Positions 3,317-34,235 of a stretch of DNA of 39,394 bases are shown here, in pieces. The stretch lies in IMG/VR virus record IMGVR_UViG_2541047825_000011, positions 1 through 39,394 of that record. One strand, given 5' to 3'. The position numbers and the translations under genes were made by a program. The DNA comes from a virus. Its lineage: Duplodnaviria; Heunggongvirae; Uroviricota; Caudoviricetes. Numbering within the stretch: the stretch's first letter is position 1; each line of letters begins with the position of its first letter. The notes beneath the pieces are model-generated. The model worked only from the letters and a program-made list of their open reading frames with translations. It did no database searches and was not told the origin of the DNA.

Positions 3317-6073
3317 TTAGCTACTTTCAAGCATTGCAAGACGTGATTCTATTTTTTCGATTCTTCTACGCAAATAAGCTGACTCAAGCCATAAACACTG
3401 GTCAGTACGGATACCCCACCTATTTCCAGCCTTGCAAACCAGAGTTCGCTCTTCTGTTTCGTATTCTTCTTCCATCTCAATTTCGACGCCATCCACAACT
3501 TTAGTGATCATCCTTACCGCCATCACTGGCGCGTATTTATCATCCCATTCATCGTAACAGAGAAGGCCAAATCTGGTTCCATCAATCCCATGCGCGAGGA
3601 AAGCGTCTCTCACTTGTTGTGCTATAACACCAAAATGCCAGCGGGCACCATCTCCCTTTTCCCTGACGGCATCAAGCCAGCGAAAAGCTACAATCCTGAT
3701 ATCTCCCCATGCATCCAGAATTGCATCACCTTCATAACCACGAGACATATACAAGCTGAGCTCACTTGTACTAATCGGTTCACTTTTTTCTCTACCATCT
3801 GATGTGTTTATCGAACCGTTCGCAGAATAAACCTGTGCCCATCTAAATGATGGTGCACCAAGAGATTTGCTGTTATCAATAATTGGTGAAAAATTACCTT
3901 TAATGGCAATATTTCCAGAGTCGCCGAATATATTAATAACTGCAGAGTCATCACCATGGTTTTTTACGCTTAAGTTTCTTGATGAAATATTTATATCTTT
4001 GTTATATCCACTAACATTAATCCATCTTTTACCATCAATGTGATGCCCGTAAATATTTCCGTTTGATTGTTCGTCAGGTGACTCTCTAAGAACAATAGCA
4101 TCTGCTCCAGACGACCATTGTATTTTTGTATCTGTAGGCCTCCAGTTCTTTATAATGAACGAACCATCAGTAAACTCCGTTTTTATTTGTCTATTGTCTA
4201 CAAATGCGTCTCTTGGTTTAAACTCACTTGTGTTAACGCTGCTCTGAAGATCAGAAGCAAAAAATCTAAGATTTCCTGTATAACCCTGAGTCTCGGTCAG
4301 GTTATACGCAATCATAATTCCATTTTCAAACTCAGATGATGTTATTTTAACATCACGGCAATCACCAAAAATGCAATTTCCTTTATCAAATGTTGTTTGA
4401 GCTTTGAATTTATCAAACCTTAAATTACGAACAGGGAAACCATCAACCTCTAATGCAAAGGATGCAGGAAGGCCAAAGTATTCTGATGGCTTACCTGATG
4501 TATGATCAAGAGTAGTGGCTACTGTATTCTCAAAAACAGTCCCGCTAAAATTATTACCAATTGACGGAAACCTGATTACACTTATTGTACCTTGTATTTC
4601 AGGAGAAATACCAGATAGTGTGATGTTAGTTCCATCAAATGATGCATCTGAATACGTATATACTAATTCACTGCCAGCAATTTTAAACTGTTTAACTGAA
4701 GTTATTCTCATCGACTTTTTATGTTTAAATGTCACTGAGCTTTCAGTATTACTTACAAGATCAATCTGAGGGCTATTCCTTATCGCGATCCCTGACTGGA
4801 CATAAACGTTATTAAAGTGCGTTTTTTCAGGATTTCCCTTCATTGAAAGGCTCCCGTCATTTTCTGTCAGTAGTAGTCCTTTTACCCTCCAATAGCCGAC
4901 AATCTGTACGTTATCAATAACTGAATCACAGCTATCGTATACATGCAACCCTATATCCCAGTCATCACCCAATGAATAAGAATCAGGGTTATTGTATCCT
5001 TCAATACCATTTTTACTTACCATTATTCTCAGGTTGCGTAACTGTGATGCCCTGTTGATACTAACAGCTACGCTCATGGCTTTTGGTGTAGCAGGAGTAA
5101 CACCTACAGAATCTTCATTTGTAAACTCAGTGAACTTACAAGATATCCCTTCAACAATTTTAACTGGTCTTTCATTAGAGATGTTAAAAAAATATTTGTT
5201 TTTTTCTCCATCACCAGTAAATACAAGATGGGTTCCTTTACTCCAACTTTTTAATAATCTTTCAGGCGCTGGTCTATATGTATCCCAATAATCAATGCCA
5301 TCACCAATTAATGACACTCCAGGAGGCACATCTATGTTCTTAGAAATCATCCATTTACCTGCAGGTATTCTAACGACACTTGCACCAGAATTTATCGCAT
5401 TAATTAACCATTCAGACGCATCAACTTCAAAATTTAATGCAGCATATCTTTGCTCAAACGGAACAAAATCAAGAGCGTTAACGTTATCCCGCATCTTATC
5501 CTGGAACGTTCGGTATACTGCTCCAGAACCATACTGAATAAACCAACCAAAACCACCAACAACTCCGGCGATTGCAGCATCAACATAATTACGCATTGAG
5601 CGATTATTTACAGCATCCTGCTCAAGTGATGGATCTGCAAGGTTAGAAATTCTGTTTTGCTTTGCATCGTAATATTTTGCAAGCAAAGATGGTTTCATCA
5701 ATGCACGTCTGAACCACCCAAAACATTGCTGGATCAGCATCGTCAGGTAGTCAAAAGCATCCTCATGAACTTCGGGGAAAAATTTTCCCTGATTGCGAAG
5801 ATCAGTCTCCTGCACCACATCAAGCACACGCTCTATCGTGATTCGCCAGCCAGCAGCAAGCGGCGACGGAAGAACCACTGCACCGCCACTATAAGTTCCC
5901 GCCCCTGTTACCGTATAACCAGCATCCAGCACTAGTTCTGTTACGTTACCGTTAAGGTCAGACACCTGAACAACCAGGTCGGATTTTTTGAAAATACGGA
6001 AGGTATACGGAAATGATGTCGTAACGCCGTTACCTGTGTATTCGTTGTGGTCAACTTCGGTTGAGACCGTCAT
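3317..6073 (-). CDS. Tailspike: T7 gp17-like N-terminal adaptor domain, central receptor-binding region, C-terminal S74-type intramolecular chaperone
   Basis: N-terminus EYTGNGVTTSFPYTFRIFKKSDLVVQV follows the T7 tail-fibre N-domain pattern; C-terminus SDGREK...RIEKIESRLAMLESS resembles the autoproteolytic chaperone of endosialidase-type fibres; central part is markedly AT-rich. Confidence 0.85.
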   Translation of the reverse strand: MTVSTEVDHNEYTGNGVTTSFPYTFRIFKKSDLVVQVSDLNGNVTELVLDAGYTVTGAGTYSGGAVVLPSPLAAGWRITIERVLDVVQETDLRNQGKFFPEVHEDAFDYLTMLIQQCFGWFRRALMKPSLLAKYYDAKQNRISNLADPSLEQDAVNNRSMRNYVDAAIAGVVGGFGWFIQYGSGAVYRTFQDKMRDNVNALDFVPFEQRYAALNFEVDASEWLINAINSGASVVRIPAGKWMISKNIDVPPGVSLIGDGIDYWDTYRPAPERLLKSWSKGTHLVFTGDGEKNKYFFNISNERPVKIVEGISCKFTEFTNEDSVGVTPATPKAMSVAVSINRASQLRNLRIMVSKNGIEGYNNPDSYSLGDDWDIGLHVYDSCDSVIDNVQIVGYWRVKGLLLTENDGSLSMKGNPEKTHFNNVYVQSGIAIRNSPQIDLVSNTESSVTFKHKKSMRITSVKQFKIAGSELVYTYSDASFDGTNITLSGISPEIQGTISVIRFPSIGNNFSGTVFENTVATTLDHTSGKPSEYFGLPASFALEVDGFPVRNLRFDKFKAQTTFDKGNCIFGDCRDVKITSSEFENGIMIAYNLTETQGYTGNLRFFASDLQSSVNTSEFKPRDAFVDNRQIKTEFTDGSFIIKNWRPTDTKIQWSSGADAIVLRESPDEQSNGNIYGHHIDGKRWINVSGYNKDINISSRNLSVKNHGDDSAVINIFGDSGNIAIKGNFSPIIDNSKSLGAPSFRWAQVYSANGSINTSDGREKSEPISTSELSLYMSRGYEGDAILDAWGDIRIVAFRWLDAVREKGDGARWHFGVIAQQVRDAFLAHGIDGTRFGLLCYDEWDDKYAPVMAVRMITKVVDGVEIEMEEEYETEERTLVCKAGNRWGIRTDQCLWLESAYLRRRIEKIESRLAMLESS

Positions 6074-6176
6074 GTTAAATCTCCAGATAGTCGCAGCACC
6101 CGTTGCGCCGCATATCTGGTTATTCTATTACCTGAAAAACCACATATGGATAGAAAGACTGTGAATACGAACAGAT

Positions 6177-6193
6177 ATTACCTTTCGGGTAAT
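6177..6193. promoter_or_regulatory. Operator-like palindrome ATTACC-TTTCG-GGTAAT
   Basis: Perfect 6-bp inverted arms with 5-bp spacer, 17 bp total, in the intergenic region upstream of the + strand antirepressor island. Confidence 0.6.
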
Positions 6194-6229
6194 TTGCAAA
6201 ACGTGCTGGATAGCAAACAAATTATTTGA

Positions 6230-6249
6230 TACTGTATAAATATACAGTT
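6230..6249 (+). promoter_or_regulatory. LexA (SOS) box
   Basis: TACTGTATAAATATACAGTT matches CTGT-N8-ACAG with an AT-rich spacer; about 20 bp upstream of the ATG at 6269. Confidence 0.7.
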
Positions 6250-6268
6250 ATTGCATGGAGAAGATAAG

Positions 6269-6526
6269 ATGCAGCAGTATCACTATCCACTGGAAGACGG
6301 ATTTACCGAAAGGATTCACACGCCGGGAGGCGTCAGGTCACTGGTGGAGGGATCGCACTTGATGAAATTACTCCGGGATCTCGATAAGGATGGATTTAAT
6401 GTCGATGGCCCACTTGCCGAACTGACTGCACTGATTAACTACGTCACCAGCTCACAGATGTCTATGCAGGATCTGCAAACACATCTCGACTATTGTGCCG
6501 AACAATTACGAAAACAAACCAGATAA
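6269..6526 (+). CDS. Small antirepressor-like protein, stand-alone homolog of the C-terminal domain of the adjacent BRO-N antirepressor
   Basis: ATG 6269 with GGAG 8 nt upstream (track ORF starts at TTG 6251); HTPGGVRSLVEGSHLMKLLRDLDKDGFNVDGPLAELT...QTHLDY aligns with HSPSGVLGLTENSLLMNLLNKLQEDGHDVSGAAAELT...QTHAEY of ORF 6840..7532. Confidence 0.65.
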   Translation: MQQYHYPLEDGFTERIHTPGGVRSLVEGSHLMKLLRDLDKDGFNVDGPLAELTALINYVTSSQMSMQDLQTHLDYCAEQLRKQTR

Positions 6527-6555
6527 GGTTTGCAATTACCAAGTGGAGTGCTTAT

Positions 6556-6574
6556 ATTTACCTTTGAGGTAAAT
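6556..6574. promoter_or_regulatory. Operator-like palindrome ATTTACC-TTTGA-GGTAAAT
   Basis: Perfect 7-bp arms; sits in the loop of a longer inverted repeat AAGTGGAGTGC ... GCACTCCTCTT (6541..6591). Confidence 0.6.
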
Positions 6575-6839
6575 TTACATCGCACTCCTCTTGTGCCATA
6601 GTAATCGGGCACTGGCAAAATCCAGTGCCGGGATTGGCGTCCCGAGTTACTACAGAGGCACATATGCCGCATAAGCGGTTTTTTTTATGTGTAAAGCGCA
6701 CCTATTCTATGGTGGGCTGTGTGGGGGCACCGAAAGGTGCGCCGGGTCCTTTGTAGCCGGTTACGCCAACCCTGCACAGTTCACCACCAACCGATTGGCG
6801 TCGGTAGTGGTGATTAACCTAACTACAAAGGTGATCGCC

Positions 6840-7532
6840 ATGAATACCAAACCTTCCATCTTTTCCTTTGAGTCATCCTGCCAGATCCGTATGTTCATGA
6901 TTGACGGAGAACCTTGGTTTGTCACCAAAGATGTGTGCAATGCTTTGAATATTGATGTTACACAAGCGAGAAAACTTGATAAAAAAGGCTGGAACAAAAA
7001 GGGGCTGTATTCAATACAGACCCCTGGTGGAATACAAGAACTATCCATCGTTTCAGAATCAGGTCTCTACATCCTTATTCTGCGTTGCAAAGAGGCAATG
7101 ACTGAGGGAACGAGAGCATTCAGATTTCTTGAATGGGTTACAGGTGAGGTTCTTCCTCAGATCCGCCGCACCGGAAGTTACATTAAAAACTCGCTCCCGC
7201 AGGAAGAACGCATAAAGATGGTTGCCGACCAGGTAGCCAACGCCACGGCGTCAGCAGTAATGCAGGCGATGAAGATAGAGAACAAAACCTACAGCGCCCC
7301 ACTGAAGCCCGGCTACCGTAGCCTGATTCATTCGCCGTCTGGTGTTCTCGGCCTGACGGAGAACTCACTGCTGATGAATCTGCTGAACAAGTTACAGGAA
7401 GACGGGCACGATGTATCGGGCGCGGCAGCGGAGCTGACCACCATGTTCTGCTACATCGTCGGTGTGAGCAAATGCCTGCGTGATATCCAGACGCACGCGG
7501 AGTACATCAACGACAAAGCAGGGTTCTTCTGA
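6840..7532 (+). CDS. Phage antirepressor with BRO-N type N-terminal domain
   Basis: Track ORF 6687..7532 trimmed to ATG 6840 (GGTGA upstream); N-terminal FESSCQIRMFMIDGEPWFVTKDVCNALNI ... ESGLYILILRCKEAMTEGTRAFRFLEWVTGEVLPQIR matches the Bro-N/antirepressor pattern. Confidence 0.8.
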   Translation: MNTKPSIFSFESSCQIRMFMIDGEPWFVTKDVCNALNIDVTQARKLDKKGWNKKGLYSIQTPGGIQELSIVSESGLYILILRCKEAMTEGTRAFRFLEWVTGEVLPQIRRTGSYIKNSLPQEERIKMVADQVANATASAVMQAMKIENKTYSAPLKPGYRSLIHSPSGVLGLTENSLLMNLLNKLQEDGHDVSGAAAELTTMFCYIVGVSKCLRDIQTHAEYINDKAGFF

Positions 7533-7603
7533 CGGGCGGCGGCACAGGGATGTGCCTTTAAATAATTCTGTACAGATTGCAGACTGGGGGTGAATAGCGT
7601 ACT

Positions 7604-7620
7604 ATTACCTCACGGGTGAT
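7604..7620. promoter_or_regulatory. Operator-like palindrome ATTACC-TCACG-GGTGAT (one mismatch)
   Basis: Same architecture as the other sites; upstream of the orphan gene 7761..8396. Confidence 0.5.
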
Positions 7621-7656
7621 CCATAGCGATTAGGCACCGATACAGGAGGAGCCCAC

Positions 7657-7689
7657 ATGAGAAAATTTGACGAGTACGAAGGCGTTTAA
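7657..7689 (+). CDS. Possible 10-codon leader ORF (MRKFDEYEGV)
   Basis: ATG 7 nt downstream of a perfect AGGAGG; lies between two operator-like sites; may be regulatory rather than a protein. Confidence 0.2.
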   Translation: MRKFDEYEGV

Positions 7690-7703
7690 CATTCGGATAG
7701 TTC

Positions 7704-7722
7704 ATTTACCCTAATGGTAAAT
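7704..7722. promoter_or_regulatory. Operator-like palindrome ATTTACC-CTAAT-GGTAAAT
   Basis: Perfect 7-bp arms, about 40 bp upstream of ATG 7761. Confidence 0.6.
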
Positions 7723-7760
7723 CCCGCTTAAAGAAGCATCTATATATTATGAGGTGATGT

Positions 7761-8396
7761 ATGCCACAACAACTGCTGAATCCGGCAAAGGTAACTGAGG
7801 TTTTCGCTCATCTGAACGAAACTCCAGACAACCGCGCCCTGTATTCAGAGTTAGTGAACGGCAACGATGTCACATCTGATGTCAAAGGCGTTTCTCTGGC
7901 TCCTGGATACCGCGTTGTCCGTGTAGACGATCGTAAGAAAGGCGAGATTCCACAGGCGCACTTTGAACTGTCATTGATAAATGACCTCACCGAAGAGGTA
8001 GTGTATTACAATCGTGTCATTATCCAGCCTGACAGCTATCTTAACTGCCGTCCTGTCACGCAGATATTGGTATGGAGAACCCAGAAGCCTAAGCATCGTG
8101 CTGTGCTTCATGATTTCGCCGGCATCATCTTCATGAACTACCTCTTGGAACGGTACGATATCATCGTGTCAGATCGCAACCAGACTCATGAAGGCATGTC
8201 GTTCTGGCAGGCTCGCATGTATGACGCACTGGAACTTGGCCTCCACCTCTATGGTTACGACATGATGACATGCGAGCTGATAGAGATGAATAACGAGGAA
8301 GAGCTTGAGAAAGGTGAAACCTGGTTGTGGGGTGATGCGGAAAACTTCCAAAACAGATTGGCCATAATTTCAAAGCATAAGCTGCCAATAAAATAG
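7761..8396 (+). CDS. Orphan protein of unknown function in the accessory island (211 aa)
   Basis: ATG with GAGGTGA upstream; no TM segment and no motif I recognise; own operator-flanked upstream region and a strong terminator. Confidence 0.7.
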   Translation: MPQQLLNPAKVTEVFAHLNETPDNRALYSELVNGNDVTSDVKGVSLAPGYRVVRVDDRKKGEIPQAHFELSLINDLTEEVVYYNRVIIQPDSYLNCRPVTQILVWRTQKPKHRAVLHDFAGIIFMNYLLERYDIIVSDRNQTHEGMSFWQARMYDALELGLHLYGYDMMTCELIEMNNEEELEKGETWLWGDAENFQNRLAIISKHKLPIK

Positions 8397-8403
8397 TTCT
8401 TTA

Positions 8404-8426
8404 AGCCCGCGACGCGGGCTTTTTTG
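8404..8426 (+). terminator. Rho-independent terminator of the + strand island
   Basis: AGCCCGC-gac-GCGGGCT followed by TTTTTTG. Confidence 0.8.
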
Positions 8427-8463
8427 TGTCTGCGGATTCCCGCCCGGGCGGCGGTGGCATTCG

Positions 8464-8490
8464 TTAAAAACAAGGCCGCGAAAGCGGCCT
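8464..8490 (-). terminator. Rho-independent terminator of the leftward virion operon
   Basis: AGGCCGC-gaaa-GCGGCCT hairpin with T-run on the minus strand, directly after the lipoprotein gene. Confidence 0.65.
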
Positions 8491-8505: not shown

Positions 8506-8919
8506 TTATAAAGATGACTGATATTTTACAACTCTGTTCATGGCATCTTTTTTCACCGAGCTGATATCAGTTCTTATTTTGGCTTCGTCATTACTGCTTA
8601 TCATGCTATTAATTTTTTGCACTGACATGCCGTTTCTTTCAGCCATTGCACATACAGCAGCATCGTATGAAGAACTCGCTGCGATGGATATCACCTTGTT
8701 ACACTCAAACACAGCACCTTCAGCAATATCAGATGCCGATGAGGCTGGCTTGGTATAAGTCTTGACGTAGTGATCAATACAACTATCCTTCGCCGTCTTG
8801 GCAAGAGAAAAATCCATTTTAACTTTGTCGCAATATGCCTTATCAACACCGTCATAAACATCATAGGATGTCGAGCAAGCGGATATCAAAAATACCGATA
8901 ACAGCAATAATTCCTTCAT
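8506..8919 (-). CDS. Lipoprotein at the end of the virion operon (candidate superinfection-exclusion lipoprotein)
   Basis: Signal peptide with lipobox LISAC; 137 aa; several Cys in the mature part; last gene of the structural operon. Confidence 0.7.
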   Translation of the reverse strand: MKELLLLSVFLISACSTSYDVYDGVDKAYCDKVKMDFSLAKTAKDSCIDHYVKTYTKPASSASDIAEGAVFECNKVISIAASSSYDAAVCAMAERNGMSVQKINSMISSNDEAKIRTDISSVKKDAMNRVVKYQSSL

Positions 8920-8928
8920 TGTTGTTCC

Positions 8929-11403
8929 TTATTGCGGAGTGACATCCTGAGGTCGCCACCAGTATGTCTGGTTAAACTCTTTCTTTGAACGTTGCTCCAT
9001 TTTACGCAAATAGCCTGGTGAAAAATACTCCTGCATCTGGTTAAAGATCATGTGATCGAGAGCCGCCTTTAAGTACCAGAGATTCGCACCTGGCATCAGA
9101 CCTTTCCCCAGCTTAACCAGATCACCACCAGTCTGCTCATTCTTCCCTTCCACAGCATTTAACGGTATGCCCTGAGCAATCTTCACTACGTCATCAACCA
9201 GACCAGCTACCGGGCCAAGCATCGACGCCAACGCGCCGCTTCCGTACCTGGTGTGGTCAGAGAAAAGAAAATCACCATACAACCCTGCACCACCACCTTT
9301 TAAAAATGCATTTATCCAGAATTTAACCATGTTGTCACCGGTCATTTCTTTTGGATTTCTCCCATTAATAAGATCAGTAATCTGCATGGAAAGAGCACCA
9401 AGCATGGTTGTGCTTGCTAAAAACGTTGCTATATATGCTGCACGCCCACCAGCAGACGGCATCCCCATAGCTCTATGCCAGTGACGCATAACTACCGAGA
9501 TAGGGAACGATTTAAACAGGAAAACACTTCTCGTTAATTCACCTTTCCATGTTCCACGCTGAAGACCAGACCCTACGAACATCTGTTCACGTGCGCCCGG
9601 TGTAATAACAGCCATATCAACTTCTTCAGTTACGGCACCGAGCAGTTTACGCATTGCCTCAAATTTCACGCGTTCAGGCTCACCAAGATGTTTAACTGCT
9701 GAATCAGGGATACGCATAATGCTTTCCGGTGTCAGCATCGTATTATTACCGTTCCCCCAGTCCTCCTGTTGCGCCAGCTTCCATACGCTCCAGTCTGTGT
9801 CAGTAATCCCTTTGCTTTTCAGGATACGAAAATCAGAGTCATCGAGGCTACGAAGGTCTGGTGTCCGTGACACTACTTCTCCCAGGCTTCCCATCATGGT
9901 TACGCCATAGGCGCGCTTGTGCGCATCTGACCATGCTGTAAGCCCACTGGCACGCATTACCGCCGTTGCCGCCCAACGAGACACAGACGGCCCCATATTA
10001 TCCATCGCCCAGCGGTTAACGCTGCCAAGTAGAGATTCCATCGCCAGGCCAGCGCGGCGCGCCCGCGCAAGCTCAGTACGGTTCGTTGGGTCCATAGCTT
10101 CAAGCTGGTTGCGAAATAACTGGTTCATTGGAAGGTTGGTAACCTTCGCAGACAGATACATGGTTCCAAGATCAGAGAACGATGACAGCAACGCGGATCC
10201 GAGTCTGCTGGCAACCAGCCAGTTGCGGATATTGTCAGACCATCGCGCGATGTGCGGATTCGCTACAGGCTGTGTTTTTCCGGAAATAAAGTTGTACAAG
10301 TTCTCTGTTTTGTTCGCCAGACGCTCGACGCTACCGGTTTTACTCGGGTTAGCTGTTGCCGTTTCTGCCTTAACCTGATCAAGAAGAGAGCGGAAAACAT
10401 GATCGGGGTTTGGGCCATATGTTTCCACCAGCGCAATATCTTTACTGATACCTTCCAGGTGACCGACCATGATTTCCCATAGAGAGCGATCGCCATAAAG
10501 TTGCTGATATTGCAGATAGGAATCTGCATCTTTGAAATGTATCTGTCGTGATGCATTACCACGGTTAGCACGTGCGCCGGAAATTCGCATTCCGGTATCA
10601 GTAAGCTTATTCAGCCCACCAGTAGCGATCGTGTTATAAGCCTCTCCAAGAAATTCAGACAACTCGGCATCGTTCATCAGTTGTCCATCGGCTCGGGTAT
10701 AATATTTGCGATCCAGCTTACCTATAACATCGCTAACCCACTTATCCTTTGATACCGCCCCAACCTTTTCCATAGAATGATGTTGAGGGATCCCCCAGTT
10801 TTCGAGATAGCCAATGTCACCACCAGCATCATTAAACCGGCGGCGCAGTAGCTCTGTCACTTCTCTCCACGCCTTAGCACCTTTTCTTGCTTTAGCATTG
10901 CCAGTATTTTGCCCTCGCATTTCATATACCAGATCACGCACGCCCGCTTCATCTTCAAACAGGCCAAAAAAGCGAGGATCAACTGCTTCAAATGCCTCCT
11001 GCAATTGACTCAATGCATAATCACGGGTGGCTTTTGTTCTGGATTCAACAGAGAGGAAATTAGATTTACCGTCTGCATTAAAAGCTATAGTACGGTTAAG
11101 AGCGCCAAGTTTCCCATCAGCCCCTTGATAGCTATTGATAAATTTATCCAATCTCTGACGCGCGGCTATAGTGAGAGCCACACGACGTTTCTTTAATGCC
11201 GCTTCTCGCTGTAATTCTTCAGATGCCAATTGTGCTGCTCGATATAGCCGCTCTGATTCGGAAAGTTGTCGCCACGACATCGGGTCATCACGAGCAATGG
11301 AGCGCATATTTCGATAAATGCGGTCTTCAATGTTCTGTATTTCTCGCGCCGTTAACATGCGCTGCGCCGCCTGCTGGACAGCTTGTATACATTCCTGTCT
11401 CAT
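8929..11403 (-). CDS. Internal virion (ejection) protein, large; T7 gp16-like position
   Basis: 824 aa; last large ORF of the virion operon; assignment by size and synteny only. Confidence 0.6.
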   Translation of the reverse strand: MRQECIQAVQQAAQRMLTAREIQNIEDRIYRNMRSIARDDPMSWRQLSESERLYRAAQLASEELQREAALKKRRVALTIAARQRLDKFINSYQGADGKLGALNRTIAFNADGKSNFLSVESRTKATRDYALSQLQEAFEAVDPRFFGLFEDEAGVRDLVYEMRGQNTGNAKARKGAKAWREVTELLRRRFNDAGGDIGYLENWGIPQHHSMEKVGAVSKDKWVSDVIGKLDRKYYTRADGQLMNDAELSEFLGEAYNTIATGGLNKLTDTGMRISGARANRGNASRQIHFKDADSYLQYQQLYGDRSLWEIMVGHLEGISKDIALVETYGPNPDHVFRSLLDQVKAETATANPSKTGSVERLANKTENLYNFISGKTQPVANPHIARWSDNIRNWLVASRLGSALLSSFSDLGTMYLSAKVTNLPMNQLFRNQLEAMDPTNRTELARARRAGLAMESLLGSVNRWAMDNMGPSVSRWAATAVMRASGLTAWSDAHKRAYGVTMMGSLGEVVSRTPDLRSLDDSDFRILKSKGITDTDWSVWKLAQQEDWGNGNNTMLTPESIMRIPDSAVKHLGEPERVKFEAMRKLLGAVTEEVDMAVITPGAREQMFVGSGLQRGTWKGELTRSVFLFKSFPISVVMRHWHRAMGMPSAGGRAAYIATFLASTTMLGALSMQITDLINGRNPKEMTGDNMVKFWINAFLKGGGAGLYGDFLFSDHTRYGSGALASMLGPVAGLVDDVVKIAQGIPLNAVEGKNEQTGGDLVKLGKGLMPGANLWYLKAALDHMIFNQMQEYFSPGYLRKMEQRSKKEFNQTYWWRPQDVTPQ

Positions 11404-11408
11404 TTAAT

Positions 11409-13211
11409 TTAACCTCTCAAGAAACACGCCACAGCGACATCAAACAGGCTGGAATCCTGTATTGCCTGCTCACTTTCCCTGTTCGCTTCATCCAGTACTT
11501 CACGCGCACTGCGCGATTGTGGATTACCATCATCATCCAGCACGGTGATTATCATGTCAGGAGATTCAAGCAGCGAGTCTTCAGCTATACGCAGATCAAT
11601 ATCTCCTGCCGGATCTGCCATCATTTTTTGTTCTGTCTGTTGCAATATCTTACCGGGCTCAAAAGGAGCTACTTCGTCTGGCGTCCTGACCTCTGCTGTT
11701 TTATAGAATGAAACAGCCTGAGCATTAAGTTCACTTTCTGCCTGCTGTCGTCGTGCCAGTTCTGCTCGAGCTTCAAAAAACTGACCGCCAGGCTCGTGCG
11801 GTGCCAACGCGTTACGGGAAAACTCCAGGCGTTCTTGTGCCTGCCGGATTCGTTGATCAATATCGCGAAGTCTGGCCTGTTTATCTGATCGAGCACGAGA
11901 CAAAGCTTTACCGCTACCGGTTGGCTCTTCTGCAAGAATTTGTGCACGCTGTTCAGTGAGATTTTCAATAATTCGTTGGCTATTAGCGATTTCAGACTGG
12001 TAAACCTGTCTATCTCCACGCGGCAAAAGCTGCGCGGCCTGTTCTTCAAGCAACCGATTTTCTATAGCGCGCGCCGTTATTCCATCATCTACAGATGACA
12101 GAGCCTCATTAACTGCCTGAGACAGCAGACTCTTGCGCCCAGGAATTTCACTGAAAGATGCAGACTCAACAATGCTGGCAACGTCTACAGGTCTCCCCTG
12201 GCTAACATCAGACATAGCTTTTCGCAGAGCCTGAATGTGAGAATTACGCGAAAGCACGTTGATCGGCACGCCAGGAGCAATATCAATTTCAGCATGATGA
12301 GCGGCATTCGCCGCCAGTGCAGCATCGATATCAACTGGTGAAAAATTTGGTGTGCTTGTAGACTCGCCGCGAGAGTTAATAAATCTGCCGACACCACCAA
12401 ACGCCACCCCAAGAACAGCATCAATAGCAATTGCCTGTCGATCCAACACATCATACTGGTTAGCCATTTCGCTATAGCCACCATCACGAAGCGTTTTTGC
12501 AGTAAGCCCACGCTGTGCCATACCGAACGCAATATTTGTACCTGCGGCATAGGCAATATCTGGCGTTGCACGTACTGCTGTTGCTGCGGCGCGTCGCACT
12601 GAACTCTCACCCGTCCGTGCAAGCTGAGCCGCCACACCTTCCGCCAGCGCACCACCAGCACGTAACCCGAGGCTCATAGGGATCAGTGTTCCGGCACCAG
12701 CAGTAATGCCCTGCACTAATCCCGCTTCCTGCGCCGTCCTGAAATCAACACCCTGTGCTGTCAGCCGTTCAAACTCAGAAAAACCCTGTAGCGAAGTTAC
12801 CGCCGCTGCACCTCCGACAGGACCACCGAGCGTTGTACCGACAACAGCCTGCCCGCCCATATCGAACAACCCATAAAGAACCTGCCCGGCGGTTCCGGTT
12901 GTCGCGGCATCAGGCGTCAGCCGCTTAACCTGCTGCTCTGCTAGTTTTCTCTGCTCAGCAATGTATGAAACTGAAGTGTCATTGAGCGAGGTGTTTTCGT
13001 TAACAAACTGAGCAATCGGGGATACGATTTTATCCATCCCTGCCCATAGCAACTGATCTGGCTTTGCCACCAGCCCGGAGTACAAACCAGACAATGCCGC
13101 TCCTACAGCATTGTCGAAAAAACCAACATCGCTGTTAAAGCCAACTGGATTTGATGCTGCTTCGTCAAGCTGCTGATTCTGGTTTACTGGATTAAGGCCA
13201 AAGTAACTCAT
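11409..13211 (-). CDS. Internal virion (ejection) protein; T7 gp16-like position
   Basis: 600 aa, Ala/Gly-rich; contiguous with flanking virion genes; function from synteny. Confidence 0.55.
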   Translation of the reverse strand: MSYFGLNPVNQNQQLDEAASNPVGFNSDVGFFDNAVGAALSGLYSGLVAKPDQLLWAGMDKIVSPIAQFVNENTSLNDTSVSYIAEQRKLAEQQVKRLTPDAATTGTAGQVLYGLFDMGGQAVVGTTLGGPVGGAAAVTSLQGFSEFERLTAQGVDFRTAQEAGLVQGITAGAGTLIPMSLGLRAGGALAEGVAAQLARTGESSVRRAAATAVRATPDIAYAAGTNIAFGMAQRGLTAKTLRDGGYSEMANQYDVLDRQAIAIDAVLGVAFGGVGRFINSRGESTSTPNFSPVDIDAALAANAAHHAEIDIAPGVPINVLSRNSHIQALRKAMSDVSQGRPVDVASIVESASFSEIPGRKSLLSQAVNEALSSVDDGITARAIENRLLEEQAAQLLPRGDRQVYQSEIANSQRIIENLTEQRAQILAEEPTGSGKALSRARSDKQARLRDIDQRIRQAQERLEFSRNALAPHEPGGQFFEARAELARRQQAESELNAQAVSFYKTAEVRTPDEVAPFEPGKILQQTEQKMMADPAGDIDLRIAEDSLLESPDMIITVLDDDGNPQSRSAREVLDEANRESEQAIQDSSLFDVAVACFLRG

Positions 13212-33650: not shown

Positions 33651-34235
33651 ATGAAAAGTATCCAGGACGTCCGCAGGCAAAATCTCAACGACTTGATCGA
33701 CCGTGAATTCAATGGTGTTCAGACGCGGATGGCTGAAAAACTTGGAACTCAGGCAAATCTGGTAAACCGCTGGGCTCTTGGCAAGAAGGTTATCGGCGAC
33801 CAGGTTGCACGAAAAATTGAAGCTGCCGCCAATAAACCCCGTAACTGGCTTGATATCGATCGCTCGCTTTCTCAGGAAGGTTTTCAGCCTGTCGGCCCAA
33901 GCGACATTGGCCAGCTGGCGGCTCACAACCTGGAACGCTGGATGAGCGAAAGCCGCGACCTTTCAACACAGGGAAAACTTCACCGCGCATCCGGCGTAGC
34001 CCAGGTGACAATCAGCCGCCTGTTAAACAATGAGGTCAGCGTTTCCATTTCCACCCTGGAGAATGTTGCATCCGCATTCGGGCGTCACGGCTATGAATTA
34101 CTGATTCACCCGCACGACCCTGCGACCATCAACTATGATCGCTCGCGCTACGCATTGTTACCCGAAACCGAGAAAGCAAAGATCGAAAGTTACATTGAAT
34201 TTGTCATCAACCAGAACGAAAAAAACAAACAATAA
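33651..34235 (+). CDS. Prophage repressor (cI-like) with two HTH motifs and no recognisable autocleavage module
   Basis: 194 aa; two XRE-type HTH segments (QTRMAEKLGTQANLVNRWALG and KLHRASGVAQVTISRLLNN); no Ala-Gly or Cys-Gly dipeptide and no S24-like C-terminal region. Confidence 0.75.
   Translation: MKSIQDVRRQNLNDLIDREFNGVQTRMAEKLGTQANLVNRWALGKKVIGDQVARKIEAAANKPRNWLDIDRSLSQEGFQPVGPSDIGQLAAHNLERWMSESRDLSTQGKLHRASGVAQVTISRLLNNEVSVSISTLENVASAFGRHGYELLIHPHDPATINYDRSRYALLPETEKAKIESYIEFVINQNEKNKQ

Follow-up and report, generated by a model that had tools for sequence, protein, structure and literature searches.

Which function is served by a gene that stands alone in a prophage, transcribed against the late genes on both sides of it, and at which stage of the phage life cycle is it expressed? 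The question is raised by a 211-amino acid (aa) open reading frame (ORF) at positions 7761–8396 of IMG/VR record IMGVR_UViG_2541047825_000011, a stretch of 39,394 nucleotides (nt) that was analyzed as a whole and is called the window here; it is an epsilon15/SPC32H/phiV10-like (Uetakevirus-type) Escherichia coli prophage. A first-pass annotation, made from the letters alone, had proposed a gene for defense, exclusion, or anti-defense. Our analysis suggests that the gene is probably switched on with the lytic program rather than in the resting lysogen. As a whole account we favor, tentatively and with slightly less than an even chance of being right, a cargo gene controlled by the immunity repressor Rep and encoding a GNAT (acyl-CoA N-acyltransferase)-fold protein with a lytic-phase role in counter-defense or host takeover.

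The gene lies on the + strand, whereas its neighbors are minus-strand late genes (Table 1), and it shares its orientation with the two antirepressor genes immediately upstream. The first two residues of its product, M1-P2, are invariant among 50 homologues. The elements that the first-pass annotation had listed around it, namely the opposed orientation, two operator-like palindromes, an AGGAGG with an ORF of 10 codons after it, and a strong terminator, are all in place.

The palindromes bear on the timing of expression. Within the 228-nt leader alone they are weakly above chance (arms of at least 7 in 39 of 300 shuffles). Across the window, there are 10 copies of the core TTACC-N5-GGTAA where 0.13 would be expected, a number reached in none of 100 shuffles, and as a motif the palindromes are thus far from random; an eleventh copy (7604–7620) has one mismatch to the full 17-mer ATTACC-N5-GGTAAT. 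In SPC32H, the identical 17-mer is present 18 times (0.83 expected) at corresponding positions, including both sides of the annotated rep gene, and the Rep proteins of the two phages are 42% identical. We therefore read the leader palindromes, from their motif and placement, as putative operators of the phage's own immunity repressor. The first of them, O1, begins with the final two bases of the −10-like TACTAT and overlaps the −10 region of the predicted promoter with the motif that is common to the OR- and OL-like sets of this phage and of SPC32H, as in a SPC32H-type regulon. The second, O2, lies 101 base pairs (bp) away, measured from center to center. SPC32H Rep is described, in the summary given by PMC9638917, as a tetramer on palindromic DNA sites that is disassembled by an Ant tetramer; a tetrameric Rep could bridge O1 and O2. 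Operator identity and placement are observed, whereas we infer the activity of the promoter and the binding of Rep to O1 and O2, as well as the enzymatic competence and the target of the product.

The geometry of promoter and operator is not peculiar to the window. Of 14 divergent relatives, 12 (Dickeya, subfamily-2 cassettes, and phage LLS among them) have a TTGCAx or TTGGCx hexamer that is followed after 16–18 nt by TAnnAT, whose last two bases are the first two of the operator. Because this geometry recurs in divergent relatives, the promoter is likely real.

In the mechanism that we propose, promoter, Rep operators, leader, gene, and terminator would form a self-contained cassette. Transcription would start from the weak sigma-70 promoter, and Rep would block it by binding O1, over −10/+1, and O2, leaving the gene silent in the stable lysogen. 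Inactivation of Rep by a LexA-controlled antirepressor upon SOS induction would turn the gene on; alternatively, it would be on immediately after infection of a repressor-free cell. Induction presumably proceeds via the antirepressor, because no S24 peptidase domain was found in the window's Rep, which has a helix-turn-helix domain (HTH_3). The + strand unit 6159–8427 is made up of three modules (the small ant gene, the Bro-N antirepressor gene with its RNAs, and the GNAT-fold cargo), and every module promoter has a putative Rep operator. This arrangement predicts a gene that is off in the stable lysogen and comes on once Rep is inactivated. That the lysogen expresses the gene independently, which the first-pass annotation had taken to be implied by the architecture, is thus not borne out; an operator over −10/+1 would rather imply repression and derepression together with the antirepressors.

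The upstream part of this unit closely follows the SPC32H switch. The small antirepressor ORF (6251–6526) shares 85.7% identity with ant as annotated in Salmonella phage SPC32H and 97–99% with the orthologues in phiV10, TL-2011b, and phiv142-3. The layout of the P_ant region is the same as in SPC32H, with the 17-bp palindrome and the LexA box correspondingly placed, and the window's cargo promoter carries a 17-bp palindrome operator as well. Unlike the window, SPC32H has neither cargo nor a Bro-N module after ant. The Rep/Ant lysogeny switch of Uetakevirus phages was reportedly set out by Kim and Ryu in 2013 and by Kim and co-workers in 2016; we know of no description of Rep control of a downstream accessory gene.

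Uetakevirus-like prophages have a hypervariable slot downstream of their antirepressor genes, and the locus is a rare accessory cargo cassette in it. Of 5426 complete E. coli genomes, 553 match in the flanks, approximately 330 have the leader 7533–7702 (promoter, O1, and mini-ORF) at 95–99% identity in front of other cargo, and 13 contain the 211-aa gene. The features assigned to the leader stand, but the upstream region is not private to the gene, as had been supposed. By annotation, the alternative cargos are DUF4760, a YafO-family toxin, DUF2335, a "transmembrane anchored protein," and hypothetical proteins. None of the type phages epsilon15, SPC32H, phiV10, and TL-2011b has the gene. From phage to phage, the slot is extended module by module: it holds ant alone in SPC32H; ant, a Bro-N gene, and a very small ORF in phiV10; and ant, the Bro-N antirepressor gene, and the 211-aa gene in the window. 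The Dickeya copy of the gene occupies this slot too and immediately follows small ant. Searches of phage records by megablast matched the first 85 nt of the region alone, and tblastn against phages returned a single distant homologue, in LLS (30% identity). The cassette is bounded at approximately 7703–7716 on the left, according to the alignment of upstream regions, and at approximately 8414–8429 on the right. With its own predicted promoter/operator leader, its own terminator, and a cargo that changes between syntenic prophages, the locus is indeed a moron-like cassette, as first proposed, and the gene is not a core virion gene. In one prophage (L055, NZ_CP148401.1, 28285–32611), two modules of Bro-N antirepressor and cargo stand in tandem; one contains the GNAT-fold gene, and the other a gene annotated as "type II toxin-antitoxin system YafO family toxin," for which no YafN partner is annotated. 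Cargo of the YafO family is frequent in the slot (also in H40, H44–H46, H57, and others).

The encoded protein belongs to phrog_1349, a PHROGs family of unknown function, and it has no Pfam, NCBIfam, or PADLOC match; a literature search with the protein accession found nothing. Close homologues (36–95% identity) occur across Enterobacterales. An exhaustive profile search gave 913 clusters at 50% identity, nearly all of them single-domain proteins of approximately 200 aa, encoded as a single gene in phages, prophages, and plasmids of enterobacteria and others. Family members of 27–43% identity are lone genes on large Aeromonas MOBH plasmids and Photobacterium plasmids, as well as on Pseudomonas megaplasmids and phage-plasmid-like replicons (H134–H158; L060, L061). 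Because no neighboring gene is conserved across approximately 50 loci, the protein seems to work alone. A conserved partner, whether an antitoxin or a dependence on Ant, was considered and rejected: Bro-N/Ant genes stand upstream in just approximately 20 of the 50 loci, and the neighbors elsewhere are an integrase, a gpK-like protein, a CHAP domain protein, DUF6246, or lysis genes. The protein is soluble and acidic (isoelectric point (pI) 5.3, net charge about −9) and has no membrane segment.

An AlphaFold2 model computed from the 50-sequence alignment (predicted local distance difference test (pLDDT) 85, predicted template modeling score (pTM) 0.82) is confident and shows a GNAT fold. Foldseek comparisons with PDB and BFVD agree on GNAT and also find uncharacterized phage proteins of the same fold, including one of Agrobacterium phage Atu_ph07. 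The GNAT topology (β1-α1-α2-β2-4-α3-β5-α4-β6-β7) is present in the model, according to which the 211-aa protein is a divergent single-domain GNAT-fold protein. The first-pass annotation was right that it lacks a transmembrane segment; its statement that no motif could be assigned is superseded by this fold. The polar residues conserved family-wide are given as Q101, W105, R106, D138, Q141, T142, G145, F148, W149, and Y164. When mapped through the DSSP string of the model, they would lie on β4, the end of β5, the start of α4, and β6, the places of the GNAT cofactor and active site, and the predicted start of α4, T142-x-x-G145-x-x-F148-W149, resembles GNAT motif B. Judging from the model, the product most likely catalyzes acyl transfer on its own or, as a minimum, binds acyl-CoA; it would modify a host or competitor target in counter-defense or host takeover.

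Comparison with known systems gives this role its outline. AcrVA5 is an anti-CRISPR acetyltransferase and a GNAT that is recognizable by sequence. Rac of phiKMV-like phages is an early predicted Gcn5-related acetyltransferase that inactivates host RNA polymerase (PMC7552054). By analogy, the most likely functional class is that of small phage GNAT proteins acting on host proteins during infection, as Rac and AcrVA5 do. Mom of phage Mu is a GNAT-fold, DNA-modifying counter-restriction enzyme with Gly-tRNA as donor (PMC13219725; PMC7261163). Like Mom, the 211-aa protein is phage-encoded, falls in a size range of approximately 210–240 aa, has a single-gene GNAT fold that is hard to detect by sequence, and contains an insertion between β6 and β7; tightly regulated expression outside lysogeny, a further trait of Mom, is predicted for it. 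A member of the Mom family would be known by sequence homology, by the essential residues R111/S124/D149/R151, and by a basic cleft for DNA and tRNA; BLASTP and hhalign found no homology to Mom, and the acidity of the protein does not agree with a basic cleft. Compared with NatD/Naa40 and Hat1, which are GNAT acetyltransferases of protein N termini and lysines, and with the acetyl-CoA-binding C-terminal domain of M. tuberculosis ICL2/Rv1916, it shows 6–13% identity, is extended by a pair of N-terminal helices and by an insertion at 173–190, and lacks a Pfam/HMM signal or a recognizable pyrophosphate-binding motif. With other phage GNAT-fold proteins, sequence-orphan ones among them, as its pattern (Mom, Rac, and AcrVA5 are the models), a lytic-phase role is the one that we favor. 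It is suggested because of the predicted timing of expression, with which counter-defense or host takeover fits better than a lysogen-protective exclusion.

Two sets of observations weigh against this account. The first concerns timing. The promoter is weak (−35 3/6, −10 4/6) and falls under the threshold of a generic promoter scan. The promoter/operator unit also stands beside family members elsewhere, namely in phage LLS and a lambda-like tail cluster. The single palindrome of the LLS genome (42.9 kb) lies upstream of the LLS family member, and the immunity region of LLS has none; because there is no further copy, the gene there may be constitutive. Several slot cargos, such as the YafO-like toxin and the membrane proteins, resemble genes for lysogen benefit or abortive infection. 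The rival account is a gene of the kind first proposed, a defense or superinfection-exclusion moron whose own promoter is active in the prophage and whose product protects the host from other phages. We consider it unlikely, although it is the alternative that survives best. The stand-alone cassette with its strong terminator, antisense to the late operon, would suit it, as would a variable slot that elsewhere carries a YafO-family toxin, DUF4760, and membrane proteins, the location of family members at classic moron positions in LLS and beside an integrase (L030), and the possibly constitutive expression in LLS, where no resident repressor sites match the operator. It is opposed by the overlap of the promoter with an operator that also forms the phage's OR/OL sets. 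In PADLOC 2.0, moreover, neither the protein nor any of three alternative cargos matched a defense system, and a soluble acidic protein without a membrane segment is unlike typical exclusion proteins. A defense or exclusion role, of which PADLOC gives no sign, is less probable than a lytic-phase role, which the predicted regulation favors.

The LLS cassette has flanks unlike those of epsilon15-type cassettes but retains the promoter/operator geometry. For LLS itself, the simplest reading is that an epsilon15-like phage recently donated the entire cassette; the proteins concerned are approximately 83% identical. A host or other factor may bind the palindrome there. The site in LLS (L058) is at 42052–42068, and the family member follows the lysis genes of this lambdoid phage; in the tail cluster (L049, 3500–3550), the promoter/operator unit and family member come after a gpK-like gene. 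Whether the operator is intrinsic to the gene family was also considered, and the idea was rejected for distant members: no site was found upstream of them in Photorhabdus, Xenorhabdus, and Erwinia loci, so the operator belongs to the slot lineage and not to the protein family.

The second set concerns the chemistry of the product. No Pfam match was obtained for the protein or for 81 relatives beyond scattered chance matches, and hhalign gave no signal against RimI (with an approximate query sequence) or Mom. Searches of PDB sequences with two profiles likewise yielded chance matches only, for example ribosomal protein S6 and CSE4. Motif A, Q/R-x-x-G-x-G/A, is not recognizable; the β4-α3 segment reads WRTQKPKHRAVLHDFAG, and a Gly at 118 or 121 is conserved within subfamilies only. 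Because there is no sequence-level GNAT signature, the protein could be non-catalytic, and because it is acidic, direct nucleic acid binding is less likely. It might then be a ligand sensor or a stoichiometric inhibitor or decoy, an antirepressor-like or anti-defense binder that has kept the fold and lost acyl transfer. Such a protein would accord with the best structural match, which is the regulatory acetyl-CoA-binding GNAT-like domain of ICL2/Rv1916, with the missing motif A and HMM signal, with nearly invariant residues that are mostly aromatic (Y82, W105, W149, and W190), with the pI, and with a location among antirepressors. Nevertheless, the polar residues R106, D138, Q141, T142, and Y164 would cluster at GNAT active-site places, and divergent GNAT enzymes such as Mom escape sequence detection as well (PMC13219725), and we regard loss of catalysis as rather improbable.

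The least probable alternative, which we doubt strongly, is a solitary GNAT-type toxin or abortive-infection effector that is off under Rep, is released by the antirepressor of a superinfecting phage or by SOS, and stops translation like TacT or AtaT: a YafO-family toxin does occur in the slot under the same type of promoter and operator, and a toxic product would suit tight repressor control, but, in contrast to TacT, AtaT, ItaT, and KacT, the gene has no adjacent antitoxin (in the approximately 50 contexts no antitoxin-like partner is seen, and upstream lies only the 10-codon ORF of the slot leader), no Acetyltransf Pfam match, and different accessory elements, the structural match is weaker to toxins than to protein acetyltransferases, and the family is also found as a lone gene on plasmids.

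The Rep-controlled GNAT-fold cargo thus remains our preferred account, and the features on which it draws are collected in Table 1 together with their surroundings.

Table 1. Features of the 211-aa gene, its surroundings, and the palindrome sites of the window
Feature	Position	Strand	Remarks
Predicted sigma-70 promoter of the cargo slot	7577..7605	+	−35 TTGCAG 7577-7582, 17-nt spacer, −10 TACTAT 7600-7605; read from sequence
Putative operator O1, ATTACCTCACGGGTGAT	7604..7620		1 mismatch to ATTACC-N5-GGTAAT; overlaps promoter −10/+1
Mini-ORF, 10 codons, MRKFDEYEGV	7657..7689	+	7 nt behind AGGAGG 7644-7649; predicted from sequence
Putative operator O2, TTTACCCTAATGGTAAA	7705..7721		core TTACC-N5-GGTAA exact; at left recombination boundary of cassette
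211-aa gene	7761..8396	+	ATG start; GAGGTG Shine-Dalgarno at 7751-7756, 4 nt upstream
Intrinsic terminator of + strand unit	stem 8403..8421, T-run to 8427	+	8-bp GC-rich stem, U-run; −13.4 kcal/mol, z = −2.8
Convergent intrinsic terminator behind minus-strand late genes (137-aa, 824-aa)	8473..8490	−	−14.3 kcal/mol, z = −4.0
Module 1: LexA-box-like sites, Rep operator, small antirepressor gene	6159..6526	+	
LexA-box-like sites (CTGT-N8-ACAG)	6159-6174; 6232-6247		6232-6247 = CTGTATAAATATACAG, near-consensus; small ant promoter
Putative Rep operator at P_ant	6177-6193		
Small antirepressor gene	ORF 6251..6526	+	probable start ATG 6269
Module 2: promoter, Rep operator, RNAs, Bro-N antirepressor gene	6530..7532	+	
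Predicted module 2 promoter TTGCAA-17-TATATT	6530-6558	+	overlapped by Rep operator 6557-6573
c4 target a1b1	6596-6648		Rfam 44.3 bits, just below 46.7 gathering score
IsrK-like RNA	6609-6685		Rfam 74 bits, above gathering score
C4 antisense RNA	6705-6791		Rfam 79.5 bits, above gathering score
Bro-N antirepressor gene	6840..7532	+	6840 is the probable start
Hairpin GGCACA-GGGA-TGTGCC, then UUUAAAUAAU	7541..7556	+	directly after Bro-N antirepressor stop codon; −10.1 kcal/mol, z = −2.4
Tailspike gene	3317..6073	−	late-gene flank
137-aa, 824-aa, 600-aa genes	8506..13211	−	late genes, other flank
Rep, immunity repressor	33651..34235		194-aa helix-turn-helix protein, HTH_3 domain
OR-like set	33532, 33580		between cro-like gene and rep
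OL-like pair	34292, 34354		either side of TTGACA-N17 promoter, recombination operon
Other palindrome sites	27801, 27819; 31237/31299; 25004; 6177; 6557		27801 and 27819 upstream of terS; 6177 at P_ant; 6557 at Bro-N promoter −10
All palindrome sites of the window	6177, 6557, 7604, 7705, 25004, 27801, 27819, 31237, 31299, 33532, 33580, 34292, 34354		

Palindromes are also seen at promoters in the nin-like region and in the slot beside the tRNA gene. In module 2, the start of the 281-aa ORF at 6687 is wrong and 6840 is the probable one, because RNA matches extend over 6596–6791; with these RNAs, the Bro-N module would give an epsilon15-like phage an antisense control of the P1/P7 immI type. The hairpin that follows this module is kept in relatives and is a weak terminator-like element.

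The mini-ORF is part of the slot leader and not of the 211-aa gene, because its segment (approximately 7613–7702) is also present in the DUF4760-type leader, as the alignment of upstream regions revealed; in relatives such as L013, L002, and L003, the gene is present without it. The common DUF4760-type slot of L004 (NZ_CP138217.1, 6001–6260) contains an identical mini-ORF behind AGGAGG, and an intrinsic terminator hairpin, GGGGCC-ATTA-GGCCCC-TTTT, follows approximately 20 nt past it and precedes the cargo gene, an arrangement that appears leader-peptide/attenuator-like. Operator O2 of the window stands where that slot has the terminator hairpin. A riboswitch or attenuator fold for the window's own leader was considered and rejected, as its folding showed no unusual stability (z = +0.8) and Rfam gave no match; an Rfam Trp_leader match at 8320–8427 is the terminator alone (E = 0.35).

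On the other side of the cassette, the 137-aa ORF (8506–8919, minus strand) has a lipoprotein-type signal (MKELLLLSVFLISAC...), a GC content of 39%, and membership in phrog_8691, whose function is unknown. Its place, distal in the ejection-protein operon, is taken in relatives by other small genes: 141-nt membrane protein genes in SPC32H and phiV10 and 185-aa, 283-aa, and other genes elsewhere. The position is a second variable slot, and the ORF is a possible exclusion lipoprotein.

A wider reading, which we offer as speculative and rather unlikely, is that phrog_1349 constitutes a new acyltransferase family of phages and plasmids for counter-defense or host takeover, sequence-orphan, immediate-early, and repressor-gated, whose members would covalently alter a protein of host immunity or of a core process or, like Mom, take their group from a donor other than CoA; the slot would then be a repressor-gated effector port whose interchangeable cargos (GNAT-fold protein, YafO-like toxin, DUF4760, and others) fire only upon inactivation of Rep.

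With our findings, a hypothetical protein that had no annotation and forms approximately 900 clusters at 50% identity becomes an enzyme candidate that can be tested by mutating specified residues. The findings also indicate that a variable cargo slot of Uetakevirus-type prophages may be under the control of the immunity repressor. A gene in a hotspot of this kind is commonly taken for a defense moron expressed in the lysogen; the regulatory logic of this locus predicts the opposite timing and would shift the relevant assays from host protection to phage-side counter-defense and induction phenotypes.

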